The position numbers and the translations under genes were made by a program. This document shows, one piece after another, positions 1,817 to 56,839 of a DNA stretch of 64,000 nt. Under the pieces are notes generated by a model. That model searched no databases and was not told the origin of the DNA. It saw only the letters and a program-made list of their open reading frames with translations. Origin of the DNA: a virus (Duplodnaviria; Caudoviricetes); the IMG/VR virus record IMGVR_UViG_3300027757_000725, positions 1-64,000 of that record; one strand, written 5' to 3'. Each line of letters begins with the position of its first letter. The first letter of the stretch is position 1.

Positions 1817-2874
1817 ATGATATTGTACTAGATGAAGATCAGCAGAGATTTGTGTTGGAGTTGTTTAAGACTACTCCTGACTTGAAGATTATAACTCAGA
1901 AGCTGTTTGATGATGATACTCTTGATGGTCGGTCTAAAGAGGGTCGTGCTGTCAGGTCATTTTTGGCTGAAGAGAGAAAGCAGTATAAGACTAGTGTTCA
2001 AGAGAAGGTTGGTCAGATAGATTTAACTAAGTCTCAGAAGGAATTTTTGATGAGTGATAGTATTGAGTTAGGTATGACTGCATTAGAAGCTGCTAGGCTT
2101 GTGTTTAAAGACGGTGGCATAAAGACATTAAGTTCTCAGCATAGAAGTGTGGTAGATTTTTTAAAGAATTTCAGACCAGAGGTTATAAATGAGAATGATA
2201 TGATCACTACTGAGAAGTGGGTGCCACCTAGAACTGTTACAAAAGCTTTAAGGAAGGTTAATGATTGGTGTGGTCAGGATTTGGATGAATCTGAGTTACA
2301 AAGAAAGACGAGGACATTGATTGAGCAATTAATTAATCATTTAAAAAGCCCTAGGTTCAAACATTTTATAAACCAGTATAGTACTTTGGCGGACAGGGAT
2401 TTATTTGAGAGTGAGTTTGTACGTGCTGTATGGGACAAGCCTGATTTGACTAATGATGAGTTAAATTTGTATGTTACGGTATGTACTAACTATGTCAGAC
2501 AAAAGCACATACAACAAAGAATAGATAGGCTAAACCAGCTGCTTGCAGATTCTGCTTCTGAGAGGGATGTTACCATGAGATTGACGGAACTCGTTAAAGC
2601 CACTAGCGACGAGCTGAATCAATGCGAGAAGAGAATTGAGTCATTAACCAAAGATTTGAATGGAAGCCGTCAGCAGCGCTTAAAAGCCAAAGGAGAGGAG
2701 AATGGGAGTATCTTCGCATTGGTTGAAGCTTTTGTTGAAAAGGAAGAGCGTGACAGGATGATAATGATGGCTGAACTACAGAATAAGTTAATTGAAGAAG
2801 AAGCCGATAGACTAGAAAGCATGGATGAGTATAAAGCGCGTGTATTAGGAATATCTAAACGGGAGTTGTTATGA
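1813..2874 (+). CDS. Hypothetical protein with C-terminal coiled coil; possible terminase small subunit
   Basis: Position two genes upstream of the terminase; helical sequence. Function inferred from synteny only. Confidence 0.4.
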   Translation: MNDIVLDEDQQRFVLELFKTTPDLKIITQKLFDDDTLDGRSKEGRAVRSFLAEERKQYKTSVQEKVGQIDLTKSQKEFLMSDSIELGMTALEAARLVFKDGGIKTLSSQHRSVVDFLKNFRPEVINENDMITTEKWVPPRTVTKALRKVNDWCGQDLDESELQRKTRTLIEQLINHLKSPRFKHFINQYSTLADRDLFESEFVRAVWDKPDLTNDELNLYVTVCTNYVRQKHIQQRIDRLNQLLADSASERDVTMRLTELVKATSDELNQCEKRIESLTKDLNGSRQQRLKAKGEENGSIFALVEAFVEKEERDRMIMMAELQNKLIEEEADRLESMDEYKARVLGISKRELL

Positions 2875-8738: not shown

Positions 8739-8752
8739 TAATTAGATTTTTA

Positions 8753-8758
8753 GTGTAA
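8753..8758 (+). promoter_or_regulatory. Putative late promoter GTGTAA
   Basis: 9 nt before ATG 8768. Confidence 0.65.
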
Positions 8759-8767
8759 ATTTATTTC

Positions 8768-10335: not shown

Positions 10336-10923
10336 ATGGCTAACGATATAACTAAACTATTGCCATTCCGTCATTACAGTGAAACCGATGTTATCAACAT
10401 GTTTTCATTCGACGGAGGCGAAGTAGGTGCAGGACTCATTGTTAAGATCACTAAAGCTGACCTTAACCAAGATCTTGTAGAATACGGCGAAGGGGGTTTC
10501 CTTAACGCTATTGGAAATGCTACATCTATGTATGCAAACGTTCCTCACAAAGTTCAGCTCGCTGACTCTGGGGATGTAGGATTGGGAATTCTTCTGCGTG
10601 ATGTACGCGAAGAGGACGAAAACGGAGAAAAAATTCGTTTTTATCCAGAGAAAAAAGCTGAACTTCAGTGTGTAGTCTCTGGTGAGGCTGTGCCTGTAGC
10701 TTCTAAGGGTTCTTTCACATTTACTGAAGGAGCTTTTGAAGGCGGTACTATTCCTGCTCCAATGTCTCAACTTGCTGTCCGCGATGGTGGTAAGCTTGGT
10801 ACAGCTGGCGCTAGTGAAGCTGTTGTAGGACTCGTTCTTGCAACTGGAAGCAGAGAAACCCAAGGAGAAGGTTCTGCCGATCCTTTCGCAGGTGACTACG
10901 CAATCGTAAAAATCGAACTCTAA
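10336..10923 (+). CDS. Capsid decoration/cement protein
   Basis: Small Gly/Ala-rich beta protein directly before the capsid gene; high-expression codon bias. Confidence 0.6.
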   Translation: MANDITKLLPFRHYSETDVINMFSFDGGEVGAGLIVKITKADLNQDLVEYGEGGFLNAIGNATSMYANVPHKVQLADSGDVGLGILLRDVREEDENGEKIRFYPEKKAELQCVVSGEAVPVASKGSFTFTEGAFEGGTIPAPMSQLAVRDGGKLGTAGASEAVVGLVLATGSRETQGEGSADPFAGDYAIVKIEL

Positions 10924-10937
10924 AATAAATCACGAAC

Positions 10938-12092
10938 ATGAAGATTACAATTAAAAGAACAGAAGATCAATTAGCCCTAGTTCGCGCTATGGCTTCATCA
11001 AATCGTGAAGAGTCTTACGAAGCACAGGCAGCTGTAGCTTCTCTTATTGGACCTGTAGTTAACGAGGTTATTAACAACGCCACCACAATTGGCAACCTCT
11101 TTAGTACAATGACATATGAGTGGGACGACAATCCGTCACTCCCTCTAGACCTCTTCCACGACATTACAGACGAAGATTATATTCAAATTTACTCTCAACA
11201 AGTTGCGGGTGGACTTCCTTATAACCAAGTCTTTCCAGCTCACAATGAGCTTAAATTCAATACCTACACTATTGACAGTGCTCTTGCGTTTGACCGCAAG
11301 TATGCTAGAAAAGCTAGGGTTGATGTTGTCAGCAAAACATTCACAAGAATGGCTCAAGAAGTAATGCTTAAGCAAGAGCGCACAGCGTTCAACGTTTTGG
11401 CTTCCGCTCTCATTAAGGGCAACGGAACCACAAACAAGCGCATTATTTCCTCCAACAACCAAGGTCGCATCATTCTTGATGACCTTAACAGATTGATCAC
11501 TAAATCCAAGCGCATTAATAGCTCTTGGGCTGGTGGTACTCCTGTTGGTGGAGCTAACGTTGGCGTAACTGACCTTATGGTTTCACCAGAGATGGTCGAG
11601 AAGCTTCGCTCAATGTCTTACAACCCAATCAATACTGAAGGTGGTGCAAGAACAGCGGGTAGCTCAAACACCTCTACAGAAAGTGCTGTTAGCGCTCCTG
11701 AGAGCCTTCGTGAGACCCTTTACAGCGGAGCTGGACTCCCTAACTTCTACGGCATCAATATCATTGAAGTCCTTGAAATGGGTATCGAGCAACGTTTCAA
11801 TAAGATCGCCCTTGCAATCGACGCTGGCGATGCCTCTACAGTTACATCTGGTGGACAAGGATCAAGTCCTGACGCTGGCTTCAGTTCAACTGACGAGCTT
11901 CTTATTGGTATCGACCGTAGCAAAGAGTCACTAATCCGCCCAGTCGTTCTTGACGAAGGTGCATCTGACGCGTTCAACGTACAAGTTGACGATCAGTTCT
12001 CCGTACGCCAAGAGAAGATTGGTTGGTTTGGTAAGATTGAAGAGGGTCGCCTCTGCATCGACGATAAAGCCCTTGTGGGAATCGTCGCCTAA
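10938..12092 (+). CDS. Major capsid protein (HK97-like)
   Basis: 384 aa, synteny, strong codon bias, followed by a terminator. Confidence 0.8.
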   Translation: MKITIKRTEDQLALVRAMASSNREESYEAQAAVASLIGPVVNEVINNATTIGNLFSTMTYEWDDNPSLPLDLFHDITDEDYIQIYSQQVAGGLPYNQVFPAHNELKFNTYTIDSALAFDRKYARKARVDVVSKTFTRMAQEVMLKQERTAFNVLASALIKGNGTTNKRIISSNNQGRIILDDLNRLITKSKRINSSWAGGTPVGGANVGVTDLMVSPEMVEKLRSMSYNPINTEGGARTAGSSNTSTESAVSAPESLRETLYSGAGLPNFYGINIIEVLEMGIEQRFNKIALAIDAGDASTVTSGGQGSSPDAGFSSTDELLIGIDRSKESLIRPVVLDEGASDAFNVQVDDQFSVRQEKIGWFGKIEEGRLCIDDKALVGIVA

Positions 12093-12109
12093 TCGCTTAA
12101 AACAATTAC

Positions 12110-12146
12110 AAGAACCGTTCCTTTAGAGGGGCGGTTCTTTTTTTTT
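12110..12146 (+). terminator. Rho-independent terminator after the capsid gene
   Basis: AAGAACCGTTCC-TTTAGA-GGGGCGGTTCTT then a T-run. Confidence 0.9.
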
Positions 12147-12177
12147 GATTTTTTTGGTGTAATACATATCATATGTT

Positions 12178-45345: not shown

Positions 45346-45916
45346 TGCTTACTTTTTTTCTAAAATTTTCTATTGTTCTGTTGTGTATATTTATACATCC
45401 TTGGTGTGAAAGATTAGTTTTCTCTGCAACTTTGTTCCAAGGTTTTAGTTTGTTTGATTCACCACCAAAATATCTTTCATTGAATATCAGCCTGACCCTT
45501 TCGTCTTCGTGATCTGATATCATATTTAGTATTCTGTTTAATGTCTCTTCGTAGATACATGTCTCTTCAGGAGTATTATCAGGAGTCTCAATGAAAAAAT
45601 CAACATAATCGTAATTAATTGAAGAGTTTTTTTTGTTTTTTGTCTTTTCAGTTAAGCAAATATACTTAGCTTTGTTGGCTATGTGTGTGGAAAACTTTGC
45701 TCTTGATTCATCATAGTCTAGTGCGGCTTCATATATATTATAATCTTTTTCATCTAAAATTTGCCCCATTTGCGTATAAGATAGGCTTTTAGATCCAAAC
45801 TTTCTGACCATATTTACATATATACCAGAATGTCTGCTTATCAATTCAATTAAAGCCACCTCGTCTCCGAATTCCTTAACCTTTTCTGTTAATTGAGTAT
45901 CGCTAAAAGTGTTCAT
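45326..45916 (-). CDS. Phage sigma70-family sigma factor (second copy)
   Basis: ALIELISRHSG, IYEAALDYDESRAKFSTHI (region 2); HTH KPWNKVAEKTNLSHQGCINIH. Confidence 0.8.
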   Translation of the reverse strand: MNTFSDTQLTEKVKEFGDEVALIELISRHSGIYVNMVRKFGSKSLSYTQMGQILDEKDYNIYEAALDYDESRAKFSTHIANKAKYICLTEKTKNKKNSSINYDYVDFFIETPDNTPEETCIYEETLNRILNMISDHEDERVRLIFNERYFGGESNKLKPWNKVAEKTNLSHQGCINIHNRTIENFRKKVSNERIKL

Positions 45917-45924
45917 TATTTAAT

Positions 45925-45953
45925 AAAATACCAGAGACAGGCAGTAAAGTCAA
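45925..45953 (-). promoter_or_regulatory. Sigma70-type promoter TTGACT-17-TATTTT, 8 nt before the sigma gene ATG
   Basis: Minus-strand motif with TGn extension. Confidence 0.6.
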
Positions 45954-45967
45954 TCTTTATTTTTTTG

Positions 45968-45996
45968 TTGACATGCCCGTATAAAGTTATTATAAT
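45968..45996 (+). promoter_or_regulatory. Perfect consensus sigma70 promoter TTGACA-17-TATAAT
   Basis: TTGACA 45968-45973, TATAAT 45991-45996. Confidence 0.85.
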
Positions 45997-46001
45997 AATT
46001 C

Positions 46002-46110
46002 ATAACGAAACGGTTCCGCCTCACAAGAGTTTCGCCCTTGAAGGTTTCGCTTTAGTGAAGGTTACGTATTATTAATACTCTCTACGTTCGTATTAATAAT
46101 GGTTTTTTTT
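46002..46110 (+). ncRNA. Candidate structured small RNA (~105 nt)
   Basis: Bounded by the consensus promoter and a hairpin plus T8; several internal stems; no ATG-initiated ORF. Confidence 0.5.
46068..46110 (+). terminator. Hairpin ATTATTAATAC/GTATTAATAAT followed by GG and T8
   Basis: Perfect 11-bp inverted repeat (AT-rich, so weak). Confidence 0.55.
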
Positions 46111-46278
46111 AGAAAAAAACATTAATTTGGGGAAGTTTTATTTCGATATTTTTTATGCGTTTTATTCTTGATTTATTAGAATAATTCCGTATGCTCAGTG
46201 TAAATTAAGTCAGCGAACACCCTTGAGAGCATTTTTAGCTATATTCGCTTTATTAACCTACAAATTAAATATTAAAAC

Positions 46279-47256
46279 ATGAGCATATTCGAAGAGCAAG
46301 TATCAAGAAAACCTAATAATTACCCGTGGGCTGAAGAATTTATTGAAGTTATGCATAATGGCTTCTGGACTGACAAAGAATTCAGTTTTTCTTCTGATGT
46401 TCAAGACTTCCATATAACAATGGACGATCAACAAAGGGAAATAATTATAAGAACTCTTTCTGCTATTGGTCAAATCGAAGTTGCTGTTAAAAAATTCTGG
46501 GCTAAACTGGGAGATAATTTACCACACCCATCTCTTACTGACCTTGGTTATGTGATGGCTAACACGGAGGTTATTCATAACAATGCTTATGAAAGACTGC
46601 TTAAGGTTCTTGGTTTGGAAGATGTTTTCGAAGAAAACTTAAAGTTGGATTTTATTGAGGGTCGTGTTAATTATTTGCGTAAATATACACATAGGTTCTA
46701 CAAGGATTCTAAGAAGCAGTATTTGTATGCGCTTATTTTGTTTACGTTGTTCGTGGAGAATGTTTCTTTAATGAGCCAGTTTTACGTTATTAATTGGTTC
46801 TCCAGAAACAAAAACGTACTCAAGGATACAGAACAGCAGGTAAGATATACAAGAAACGAAGAAAACATTCATGCTCAAGTAGGAATTAAGATCATTAATA
46901 CCATAAGAGAAGAGCATCCAGAGCTTTTCGACGAGGAGCTTGAAGAGCGTATTATGCAAGAGGCTGAACAAGCTTATGTTGCAGAAGCTAAAATTATTGA
47001 TTGGATGGTTAACGGAATTAATGAAGAAGGATTAAGCGCTCCACTACTAAAAGAGTTTATTAAATCTAGGATTAATGATTCACTTGAACAAATTTCATTT
47101 AAGAAGGCTTTTGATGTTGACAATAATGTGATTAAAGATACAATGTGGTTTGAAGAGGAGTTAATGGGAAACAATTCCACAGACTTTTTCCACTCTCGTC
47201 CTGTAGAGTATTCAAAGAAATCACAAACATTCGATCTAGAAAGCGTATTTGCATGA
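46279..47256 (+). CDS. nrdB: Ribonucleotide reductase beta subunit, class Id-like
   Basis: E67, K71, E97-x2-H100, Y104, ENVSL and EENIH ferritin-like ligands. Confidence 0.95.
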   Translation: MSIFEEQVSRKPNNYPWAEEFIEVMHNGFWTDKEFSFSSDVQDFHITMDDQQREIIIRTLSAIGQIEVAVKKFWAKLGDNLPHPSLTDLGYVMANTEVIHNNAYERLLKVLGLEDVFEENLKLDFIEGRVNYLRKYTHRFYKDSKKQYLYALILFTLFVENVSLMSQFYVINWFSRNKNVLKDTEQQVRYTRNEENIHAQVGIKIINTIREEHPELFDEELEERIMQEAEQAYVAEAKIIDWMVNGINEEGLSAPLLKEFIKSRINDSLEQISFKKAFDVDNNVIKDTMWFEEELMGNNSTDFFHSRPVEYSKKSQTFDLESVFA

Positions 47257-48923
47257 AAAAATATTATTGGAACAACAAAACATCACAACAAATTTTAAAC
47301 AGAGGTTATCTTGACGGCGAAAGCTTAATTAGTCGGGTATTGAGCGTCGGGGAATCATTTCAGAAAGACTTCCAGTCTAGAGCTCCCGCCGAACACAAAG
47401 GTAAGTTTTCCGACCTGTGTGAAAAGTTTGAGCATTACATGTCTCTTGGATTCTTTTCTTTATCTAGCCCTGTTTGGGCTAATTATGGAAGAGATAGGGG
47501 TTTGCCTGTTTCTTGTAATGGCGTTTTTGTGCCTGATACAATGGAGGGAATTTTGACAAAGCAGTCCGAAGTCGGTATGCAAACTAAGCATGGTGCTGGA
47601 ACTTCTGGTTATTTTGGTGATCTCAGAGGCAGGGGTAAGTCAATTAGCACAGGAGGAAGCTCATCTGGCTCGGTTCACTTCATGGAGTTGTTTGACAAGG
47701 TGACTTCAGTGGTATCTCAGAGTAGTGTGCGAAGAGGTTCTTTCGCTGCCTATCTCCCTGTCGATCACCCAGATATCGAAGAGTTTCTCCGTATTAGATC
47801 TGATGGACATCCTATTCAGGATTTATCGTTTGCTGTCACCATTACAGACGAATGGATGGAGGATATGAAAGGCGGAGACATTGATAAGCGAAAGATCTGG
47901 GCTAAGATTGTTCAGAAGAAGTTTGAATCAGGCTACCCCTATTTATTTTTCCAAGATACCGCGAACAAGAACGCTCCTCAAGTCTATAAAGATAAAAACA
48001 TGAAGATTTATGCTTCTAATCTTTGTAACGAAATTGCGCTACCTTCCTCACCAGAAGAGTCGTTTGTCTGTTGTTTATCTTCTCTTAATTTGGAGAGGTG
48101 GGATGAGATTGTTAAGACCGATGCTATTGAAACAATGGTTTACTTTCTTGATTCGGTAATGGAGGAGTATATCAATAAGACTGAGGATATTCCTTATATG
48201 GAATTTGACCACAACTTTGCAAAACGCCATAGGGCTTTGGGAATGGGTGTTCTTGGTTGGCATTCTTATTTGCAAGACAATATGGTTTCTTTTGAAAGCA
48301 TGGAAGCAAAGATGAAAAATGCTGAAATTTTTAGAACAATCAGAGAAAGAGCGGACAAAGCCACCGAAGAACTAGCCAAGGTCTTTGGAGAACCAGAAGT
48401 ATTGAAAGGTTATGGTCGCAGAAATACAACAACAATGGCTGTTGCTCCTACAACTACAAGTTCACTTATACTAGGTCAAGTATCTCAAGGGATTGAGCCT
48501 ACTGTCAATTATTATACAAAGAATTCTGCAAAAGGAAAATTTACAATTAGAAGTCCTCACCTAGAGAGATTACTTGAATCTAAAGGTAAAAATACGGAAG
48601 CTGTATGGAAATCTATTCTTGTTAAGGACGGTTCAGTTCAACACTTGGGCTTTCTCGACGAACACGAAAAAGATGTATTTAAAACATTTTCAGAAGTATC
48701 CCAGAAAGAGATTGTAATACAAGCCTCCCAACGCCAGAAATATATTGATCAAGGACAGTCGTTGAACTTAATGGTTCACCCTAAAGCTTCTCCAAAGGAA
48801 GTTAGTGATCTTATGATTTTAGGTTGGGAGATGGGTCTTAAAGGGTTTTATTATCAAAGAAGCACAAATCCAAGTCAGGCTCTCGCTCAATCCATCATGG
48901 AATGTCAGTCCTGCGAGGGTTGA
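47253..48923 (+). CDS. nrdA: Ribonucleotide reductase alpha subunit (short, no ATP cone)
   Basis: LPVSC, RRGS, SNLCNE, APTTTSS, DQGQSLN, YY and C-terminal CQSCEG. Confidence 0.95.
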   Translation: MKKYYWNNKTSQQILNRGYLDGESLISRVLSVGESFQKDFQSRAPAEHKGKFSDLCEKFEHYMSLGFFSLSSPVWANYGRDRGLPVSCNGVFVPDTMEGILTKQSEVGMQTKHGAGTSGYFGDLRGRGKSISTGGSSSGSVHFMELFDKVTSVVSQSSVRRGSFAAYLPVDHPDIEEFLRIRSDGHPIQDLSFAVTITDEWMEDMKGGDIDKRKIWAKIVQKKFESGYPYLFFQDTANKNAPQVYKDKNMKIYASNLCNEIALPSSPEESFVCCLSSLNLERWDEIVKTDAIETMVYFLDSVMEEYINKTEDIPYMEFDHNFAKRHRALGMGVLGWHSYLQDNMVSFESMEAKMKNAEIFRTIRERADKATEELAKVFGEPEVLKGYGRRNTTTMAVAPTTTSSLILGQVSQGIEPTVNYYTKNSAKGKFTIRSPHLERLLESKGKNTEAVWKSILVKDGSVQHLGFLDEHEKDVFKTFSEVSQKEIVIQASQRQKYIDQGQSLNLMVHPKASPKEVSDLMILGWEMGLKGFYYQRSTNPSQALAQSIMECQSCEG

Positions 48924-49007
48924 TTCCCTAAACAAATCAATCAGTGTATAAGAATTTTGCAATCCAATTGGATGCATATTATAAAAATAACTAACTAAAA
49001 AGTAGAT

Positions 49008-49445: not shown

Positions 49446-49463
49446 CTTTTCTTGAGAAAATTT

Positions 49464-49498
49464 AACCTCTCTAAGTTTTATTCTTAGAGGGGTTTTTT
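49464..49498 (+). terminator. Rho-independent terminator after hsp20
   Basis: AACCTCTCTAAG-loop-CTTAGAGGGGTT then Ts. Confidence 0.85.
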
Positions 49499-49538
49499 AT
49501 TATGTATTTATATCTTTGAATATTAATTAATATACAAC

Positions 49539-56606: not shown

Positions 56607-56839
56607 TTAACCCTCAAAAAACTGCAGAAGGGCTACCAACAAGCTTAGTGACTAGACTTTATGATTGCACTGGATCATGTTCAGACGGAACTAAGGGTTT
56701 TCTTTTATTTTTTATAAACGAAGATGGAAACCCATCAATACATACCCAAACAAGCAATGGTTGTGTTGATATGGCTCTTCATAAATTAATTGAAGTATAC
56801 ATATCTCAACCGACACAAAAAACAAAAACAGACCAATGA
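56603..56839 (+). CDS. Small hypothetical protein
   Basis: ORF coupled by ATGA-type overlaps. Confidence 0.6.
   Translation: MINPQKTAEGLPTSLVTRLYDCTGSCSDGTKGFLLFFINEDGNPSIHTQTSNGCVDMALHKLIEVYISQPTQKTKTDQ

Follow-up and report, generated by a model that had tools for sequence, protein, structure and literature searches.

A conserved promoter, repeat and hairpin element upstream of nrdB in uncultured marine phages, a candidate small RNA gene

Short transcription units in the gap between divergent early genes are known from several phages, namely those for lambda OOP, P22 Sar, P1 c4 and P4 CI, whose RNAs expose a conserved-loop hairpin followed by a U-tract and either are antisense to their own phage or find matching target sites in it. 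The element described here, which lies between a sigma-like gene and nrdB, shares this position and this hairpin and U-tract, but it has no sequence or Rfam relation to these RNAs and no such target was found: in the window and five related phage contigs the complement of its loop occurs only in the element itself, and in a Flavobacteriales MAG, into which an 8-kb contig with one copy of the element was binned, the complement gave 29 matches versus 66 for the control and hence no enrichment. The RNAs CsrB and RsmZ (GGA motifs) and CrcZ (A-rich motifs) likewise carry repeated motifs in variable number ahead of a terminator, but none of these RNAs has a counterpart of the element's additional hairpin with its invariant loop. 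A CsrB/Rsm-type sponge was rejected, as the units in the window read GGU rather than GGA and CsrA (PF02599) was absent from the MAG, itself uncertain as the host, and from three phage contigs, in searches that detected their controls. ToxI type III antitoxin arrays and phage pseudo-ToxI arrays also have a promoter, variable tandem RNA repeats and a terminator, and the phage copies act as decoys. ToxI repeats are uniform and approximately 35-45 nt long, whereas the units of the element are irregular, at 12-28 nt, and the next gene is nrdB, with no toxin gene following; this candidate was also set aside.

Among DNA elements, T4 oriF and oriG resemble the element in having a promoter and an easily unwound region together with recombination-type replication genes and no initiator, but to our knowledge T4 origins have no conserved-loop hairpin, repeat array or terminator. 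Rolling-circle origins of the pMV158 family and of the geminivirus type combine replicon-specific repeats with a hairpin loop shared among replicons, as the element does, and at pMV158 the nick site TACTACG/AC is located within a hairpin loop, with 2-3 direct repeats nearby (PMC1851628). In contrast, the element is found on 50-120-kb tailed-phage contigs, between a promoter and a terminator, and a search of five related contigs yielded no HUH nickase gene. A pMV158-type origin was rejected, with 5-6 of the 9 nick bases shared by the loop and Rep_2 (PF01719) not found in five related contigs.

Resemblances to an NrdR box, ParB/parS, boxA, an ECF -35 and a 16S mimic, all weak or at chance level by eye, were dropped. 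The Infernal search of Rfam that the earlier note on this DNA had proposed returned no family, riboswitches and leaders included: the best matches to Rfam 15 in the window had E-values of 1.4-2.5, far below gathering, and seven related loci gave nothing at E <= 0.1. No tRNA or tmRNA was detected by a scan of the window, and a literature search retrieved no description of such an element.

The locus and its promoters

The sigma-like gene and nrdB are separated by 362 nt, the longest gap in the window, by which we mean the whole 64-kb stretch of viral DNA that was analyzed (Table 1). The earlier note had placed the element divergent from a sigma gene and upstream of nrdB; the position was confirmed, and the neighbor is plausibly a sigma factor, given weak but consistent profile matches to TIGR02937 (E = 1.2e-3) and, among PDB profiles, to FliA, SigF, WhiG and RpoH. 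The window phage has RecA-like, DnaB-like, DnaG-like and Pol III genes, while no recognizable replication initiator gene was found among the phage genes, as in T4-type systems. Genes in the window have no Shine-Dalgarno sequences when read by eye. Cultured phages matched the window at the DNA level in nrdB only and gave no match for the sigma-like protein; the TerL is 22-24% identical to those of cultured phages, with no close cultured phage.

Table 1. Coordinates of the element and its neighbors in the window
Feature	Position	Strand	Remarks
Sigma-like gene, 196 aa	45326..45916	-	Conserved neighbor, context only
Promoter of sigma-like gene, TTGACT-17-TATTTT, TG upstream of -10	45925..45953	-	Leftward
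Consensus sigma-70-type promoter, TTGACA-17-TATAAT	45968..45996	+	Rightward; -35 at 45968-45973, 17-nt spacer, -10 at 45991-45996; kept in 56/59 distinct homologues
Predicted small RNA, ~107 nt	46003..46110	+	Start predicted 7 nt past -10, end predicted at T8
5' inverted copy of repeat unit (CGAAACGG)	46006..46013	+	Absent in L156
Array of four direct repeat units, core GGNUNCG	46012..46066	+	Last unit abuts the hairpin
Individual GGNUNCG units	46012-46018, 46028-46034, 46043-46049, 46060-46066	+	Second unit is an AG variant
Long AT hairpin	46067..46101	+	Arms 46068-46077 and 46091-46100; U-G pair 46067/46101
Presumed termination tract	46103..46119	+	T8 at 46103-46110, AG, A7 at 46113-46119
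AGTGTAAA motif ahead of nrdB	46197..46204	+	Context only, outside predicted RNA
nrdB (ribonucleotide reductase small chain; PF00268)	46279..47256	+	Conserved neighbor, context only
nrdA	47253-48923		3' of nrdB; conserved neighbor, context only

The perfect consensus promoter that the earlier note had reported is indeed present and scores 12/12, with no second perfect match anywhere in the 64 kb, where 0.10 would be expected by chance; one perfect match was found in 10 of 100 window shuffles. In Bacteroidota, TTGACA/TATAAT, the classical sigma-70 promoter, is not the expected type. It would therefore not be expected if the host is of Flavobacterium type. We infer strong expression of the predicted RNA from this promoter only. 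On the other strand, the ATG of the sigma-like gene follows 8 nt after the end of its promoter's -10 (45916-45930, minus strand), and the mRNA of that gene is therefore probably leaderless. The divergent -35 pair, GTCAA/TTGAC, is retained in relatives. Many relatives have a separate promoter, TTGACC-17-TAAAAT or TTGACC-17-TAACAT, between the terminator and nrdB; a promoter scan of the window found no good sigma-70 promoter from T8 to nrdB.

The AGTGTAAA motif stands upstream of nrdB in every related clade, with GTGTAA retained in all of them. The window has six occurrences of AGTGTAWA, no more than chance would give, yet four of these (709-716, 8752-8759, 46197-46204 and 48943-48950) fall within its few short intergenic gaps, immediately 5' of rightward genes; AGTGTAWA/GTGTAA may serve this phage as a specific promoter or leader motif, perhaps one read by its sigma-like factor. 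Two classical terminators with a G+C hairpin and a T-run were seen elsewhere in the window (12093-12177 and 49446-49538), one following a 384-aa gene that probably marks the major capsid region, the other following an Hsp20-like gene; as predicted sites, they show that canonical intrinsic terminators are in use in the window phage. A 229-nt gap separates a DUF559-like gene from the helicase block (56607-56835); it has no ORF of at least 90 aa and is not AT-rich in composition, and a small gene or a further non-coding element may lie there.

Anatomy and conservation of the element

The roughly 105 nt free of ORFs that the earlier note described downstream of the promoter correspond to the predicted RNA, near which we found only a 60-aa TTG frame running across the promoter and a 4-codon ATG frame from 46100, and no real ORF. 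GTTTCGC occurs twice, as had been noted (46029 and 46044), and both this word and the GGNUNCG unit pattern occur in the window about as often as expected by chance. Relatives carry ACGUAACC at the place of the 5' inverted copy, and the last direct unit abuts the hairpin. Likewise present are the 11-bp hairpin and T8 of the earlier description, the hairpin having ten Watson-Crick pairs and one U-G pair, an AT-only stem, a folding energy of -8.2 kcal/mol and a 13-nt loop (46078-46090) with the conserved core UACGUU. In most copies the long hairpin is followed by a small G+C hairpin and a U-run; in the window's clade, T8 lies directly 3' of the AT hairpin and replaces that small terminator hairpin. 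A terminator scan of the window did not call the site at 46067-46110, because its stem has no G-C pairs.

Homologous copies were collected from IMG/VR and from JGI/TARA metagenome contigs using the two flanking proteins and loop pattern searches, and a covariance model search added two further sub-families. In total, 59 distinct copies were obtained, on uncultured marine viral or metagenome contigs. Gene order is constant in nearly all of them, with Zn-ribbon, glycosyltransferase and sigma-like genes leftward and the element and nrdB rightward. Because a promoter of the form TTGAC(N)-16 to 18-(-10) stands at a fixed distance in 56 of the 59, the conserved block appears to begin at approximately +1. 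A T-run lies 3' of the hairpin in 47 of the 59, approximately 20% of copies being without a U-run and the L001 group having an A-run there. The predicted RNA measures 85-155 nt in the copies (median 113, versus 107 in the window) and contains two to six GGNUNCG units spaced 11-28 nt apart, some of them inverted (L110, L157, L070 and L042). Since indels in the block are not multiples of three and the repeat number varies, the block is taken to be non-coding. The covariance model had no match in 150 other Flavobacteriales genomes, which argues that the element belongs to phages.

Five sub-families can be distinguished. Sub-family A (the window, L102, L156, L154, L001 and L003) has AAGGUUNCG-type units, and sub-family B (L026, L091 and others) has GGAUACGUAUCC units together with small ACAGURCUGU palindromes, which are perfect and loop-less. 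Sub-family C (L052, L109 and others) has two CGUAU-NGG-AUACG hairpins; sub-family D (L033, L061 and others) is similar to C, with a 23-nt loop containing two inverted unit copies; and in sub-family E (L051) an 18-bp AT stem carries UUCG in place of the big loop. In sub-families B-D, AGGA or UGGA is found in the loops of small hairpins approximately 17 nt apart. Across the sub-families, the core of the unit, the direct contact of the last unit with the hairpin, and the hairpin with its nearly invariant loop core UACGUU are constant.

A sister clade (L007, positions 2610-2860, and L008), with a 95% identical NrdB, has a different, leftward unit of approximately 190 nt in the same gap. On the minus strand, this unit contains TATAAT, direct repeats containing TATCG, a 19-bp long-range hairpin and U9, and in L008 it ends in a G+C hairpin and a U-run. 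Because this clade has a leftward unit of its own, the gap behaves as a slot for small transcription units.

Pairing within the element and the hairpin in unrelated phages

Covariation was assessed in 57 distinct rows aligned to the covariance model. Over the long and terminator hairpins, 94.2% of cells are paired, compared with 81.0% in shuffles (0 of 500 as high) and 36-44% in controls with slid partners; 11 of 15 pairs have changed on both sides, and the covariation score is 0.271 versus 0.066. For the long hairpin alone, pairing reaches 95.8% of cells, with changes on both sides in 8 of 12 pairs, and since the alignment is fitted to the model and the inner stem is partly set by the search pattern, the informative part of all these values is the outer stem pairs and the terminator stem. 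Changes in the outer stem include UU/AA, UA/UA, CU/AG and AA/UU, with G-C pairs in L019, and those in the terminator stem before the U-run include GGC/GCC, GCC/GGC, GUG/CAC and GAGC/GCUC. Counts of G-U versus A-C (8 versus 12, with 8 of the A-C cases at the loop-closing pair) favor neither strand. An intrinsic terminator functions as RNA only, and on one strand only. As read from the alignment, a stem that covaries and is followed by a U-run on just one of the strands is what characterizes an intrinsic terminator, and we regard the covariation of the terminator as the strongest argument for a selected RNA with a defined, predicted 3' end.

Covariation in related phages, which the earlier note had named as a check, was thus found for two helices, the long hairpin and the terminator, and not for the 5' junction that the note had also proposed. 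That multi-way junction (TAAC/GTTA, CGAAAC/GTTTCG, CC/GG and TTCGC/GTGAA) can be drawn, but it is unsupported and is not the minimum-energy fold. Relative to shuffles, the folding energy has z = -1.37 for the whole RNA and z = -0.44 for the 5' domain, and RNAalifold predicted the terminal hairpin only, and no 5' structure, in nine members of the window's clade. The proposed alternative pairing of CGAAAC with GTTTCG is not conserved either: the close relative L156, which has no 5' inverted copy, is without the CGAAAC segment, and the close relative L154 has a single GGTTTCG. Because these relatives break the proposed pairs, a switch is unsupported. A pairing of the loop with the 5' region of nrdB (CGAAC ... 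GAGAG) is present in the window and absent from L102, and was dropped.

Complementarity between the loop and the 5' units was found in sub-families C and D, with predicted duplexes of -10 to -26 kcal/mol. Of 53 elements tested, 16 have a duplex that reaches p <= 0.05 compared with shuffles, and almost all of these belong to C or D; in L034 and L028 a matched double change joins the loop AUCCGUU to the unit AACGGAU. Such complementarity is absent from the window's clade (duplex p = 0.98). In sub-family D, the enlarged 23-nt loop (approximately 2857-2953 in L033, L050, L057, L061, L063, L066, L070 and L042) forms duplexes with the units of -18 to -26 kcal/mol, stabler than the AT hairpin, which raises the possibility of a pseudoknot or of an alternative conformation.

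The conserved loop was also found in unrelated phages, carried there by a different AT stem and following a promoter and another short repeat array (L087; L097/L123). In L087, L089 and L150, the hairpin stands twice in tandem after six AAAAGC repeats, ahead of genes for a DinG-like helicase and an Mre11-like nuclease. In L087, a perfect TTGACA-18-TATAAT (2417-2446, plus strand) and a 10/12 promoter (2727-2754, minus strand) converge on the tandem hairpins, such that one transcript would carry the loops and the other their complements, possibly as a cis-antisense pair ahead of the DinG-like helicase gene. L097, L120 and L123 carry the hairpin in a GC-rich prophage, close to an integrase; a TTGACA-17-TAATTA site and three AAAAGATCT-like repeats precede it, and an operon encoding a helicase loader, a helicase and a primase follows. 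In the L097 prophage, genes for an AgrB-like protein (PF04647, E = 1.3e-17) and for a protein with an RF-1 domain were also seen, at 10851-11384. The same loop hairpin occurs in L112, and in L019-L021 it stands upstream of nrdB without units. The stems are almost exclusively A-U even in GC-rich DNA (L097, L120, L123 and L112). That one loop recurs beside repeats that differ between lineages suggests a widely conserved partner for the loop.

Competing explanations and what the element would mean

The comparison indicates that the element is a real conserved non-coding unit comprising a promoter, a repeat array, a hairpin and a terminator. The earlier note had offered either a phage sRNA or an attenuator of the RNR; the first half of this proposal holds up, in that promoter, block and terminator behave as a unit in 59 copies with two covarying helices, and the second half does not. 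As expected of an independent small RNA gene, the element has its own predicted promoter at a conserved position and its own predicted intrinsic terminator on the same strand, although with its AT-only stem the window is the weakest case of the latter. On balance, we therefore lean towards a discrete early small RNA gene of 85-155 nt acting in trans. Host RNA polymerase would transcribe this stand-alone gene early in infection, starting at approximately 46003, some 7 nt past the consensus -10; the transcript would pass through the GGNUNCG array and the AT hairpin, displaying the nearly invariant 13-nt loop, and would end in the U-tract (46103-46110), for a total length of approximately 107 nt. 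We infer the transcript, its ends, its early timing, its action in trans and its partner. The exposed loop would be a conserved contact surface and the variable array would provide several binding sites, such that the RNA could dock or titrate a host or phage nucleic-acid-binding factor as a decoy or sponge; as a second option, the loop would base-pair with a host RNA. The decoy mechanism specifically is put forward only tentatively. Pairing of the loop with the units in two sub-families would be natural for an RNA. On the other side, AT stems in GC-rich DNA suit easily melted DNA equally well, bidirectional units and loop-less palindromes are typical of DNA-binding sites, and the 5' domain of the window's clade has neither significant structure nor loop complementarity.

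The stems, units and palindromes just named belong to the main rival, a replication element acting at the DNA level, which we consider rather unlikely. The units would be iterons and the AT inverted repeat an unwinding or extrudable hairpin, the invariant loop being recognized or nicked as single-stranded DNA while the promoter activates or primes the origin, much as at T4 oriF/oriG or in T7. Units in both orientations and in variable number and spacing, perfect palindromes in some sub-families and A-T-rich stems even in GC-rich replicons would all suit an origin, as would the presence of lineage-specific repeats (GGNTNCG, AAAAGC and AAAAGATCT) beside the same hairpin loop in unrelated phages. 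The element also heads a block of nucleotide and replication genes in a phage with no recognizable initiator, as in T4-type systems, and the commoner loop variant has ACTACG, as in the pMV158 nick site (TACTACG/AC; PMC1851628), although the window's own loop shares only CTACG with it. However, the covarying terminator hairpin and U-run on one strand only, together with a conserved block that starts at the promoter's +1, argue against an origin, and the matched changes in loop and unit fit strand pairing better than protein sites. Cumulative GC skew has no inflection at the element and gives no origin signal, and neither Rep_2 nor GPA (PF05840) nickases were found in the five related contigs (35-89% complete) or among the scanned genes of the L097 prophage.

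Less probable still, and in our view quite unlikely, is a cis-acting leader of the nrdBA/replication operon, that is, an early promoter with an antitermination hairpin of the nut/put or LoaP type, or an attenuator. Lambda nut, HK022 put and pR'-tR' present a promoter, a hairpin and a terminator and then a gene block, an arrangement which the element and its long rightward block resemble; moreover, the copies without a U-run would read through, the window has no good sigma-70 promoter for nrdB after T8, and hairpin-only copies head early operons in L087 and L097/L123. Against this, many relatives do have such a separate promoter past the terminator, no riboswitch or leader family was matched in Rfam, and the sister clade with its near-identical nrdB has a leftward, different element in the gap instead. 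Nothing competes with the terminator for pairing, RNAalifold having found no conserved, mutually exclusive terminator and antiterminator pairings in the nine clade members, and a switchable RNR attenuator, as proposed earlier, is therefore unlikely. A chance arrangement, in which a fortuitous promoter happens to lie beside an AT-rich palindrome in a long, functionless gap, is scarcely credible: although perfect promoters arise in window shuffles, the repeat words are at chance frequency and the fold is no better than in shuffles, the comparative data refute it, with 59 distinct homologues keeping promoter, units, hairpin and terminator while the flanking spacers diverge, and with strong covariation.

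Returning to a small RNA gene acting in trans, a broader and improbable version of it would be a modular class of phage RNAs, in which a portable invariant-loop hairpin is combined with lineage-specific decoy arrays (GGNUNCG, AAAAGC and AAAAGATCU). The loop would then dock a factor conserved across very different hosts, from those of AT-rich marine phages to that of the GC-rich prophage, and, if true, this would describe an early phage-encoded RNA sponge for host takeover or counter-defense in hosts without CsrA-type systems.

Very little has been charted of the small RNAs that lytic phages in the environment produce, and the present element is conserved in a large clade of uncultured marine phages that recur in many coastal and open-ocean metagenomes; the covariance model and alignments are a concrete object to test. 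Should the element prove to be an origin, it would show where replication begins in an uncultured phage group; should it act as an early decoy or regulator, it would direct attention to a host factor whose control is needed by many phages.
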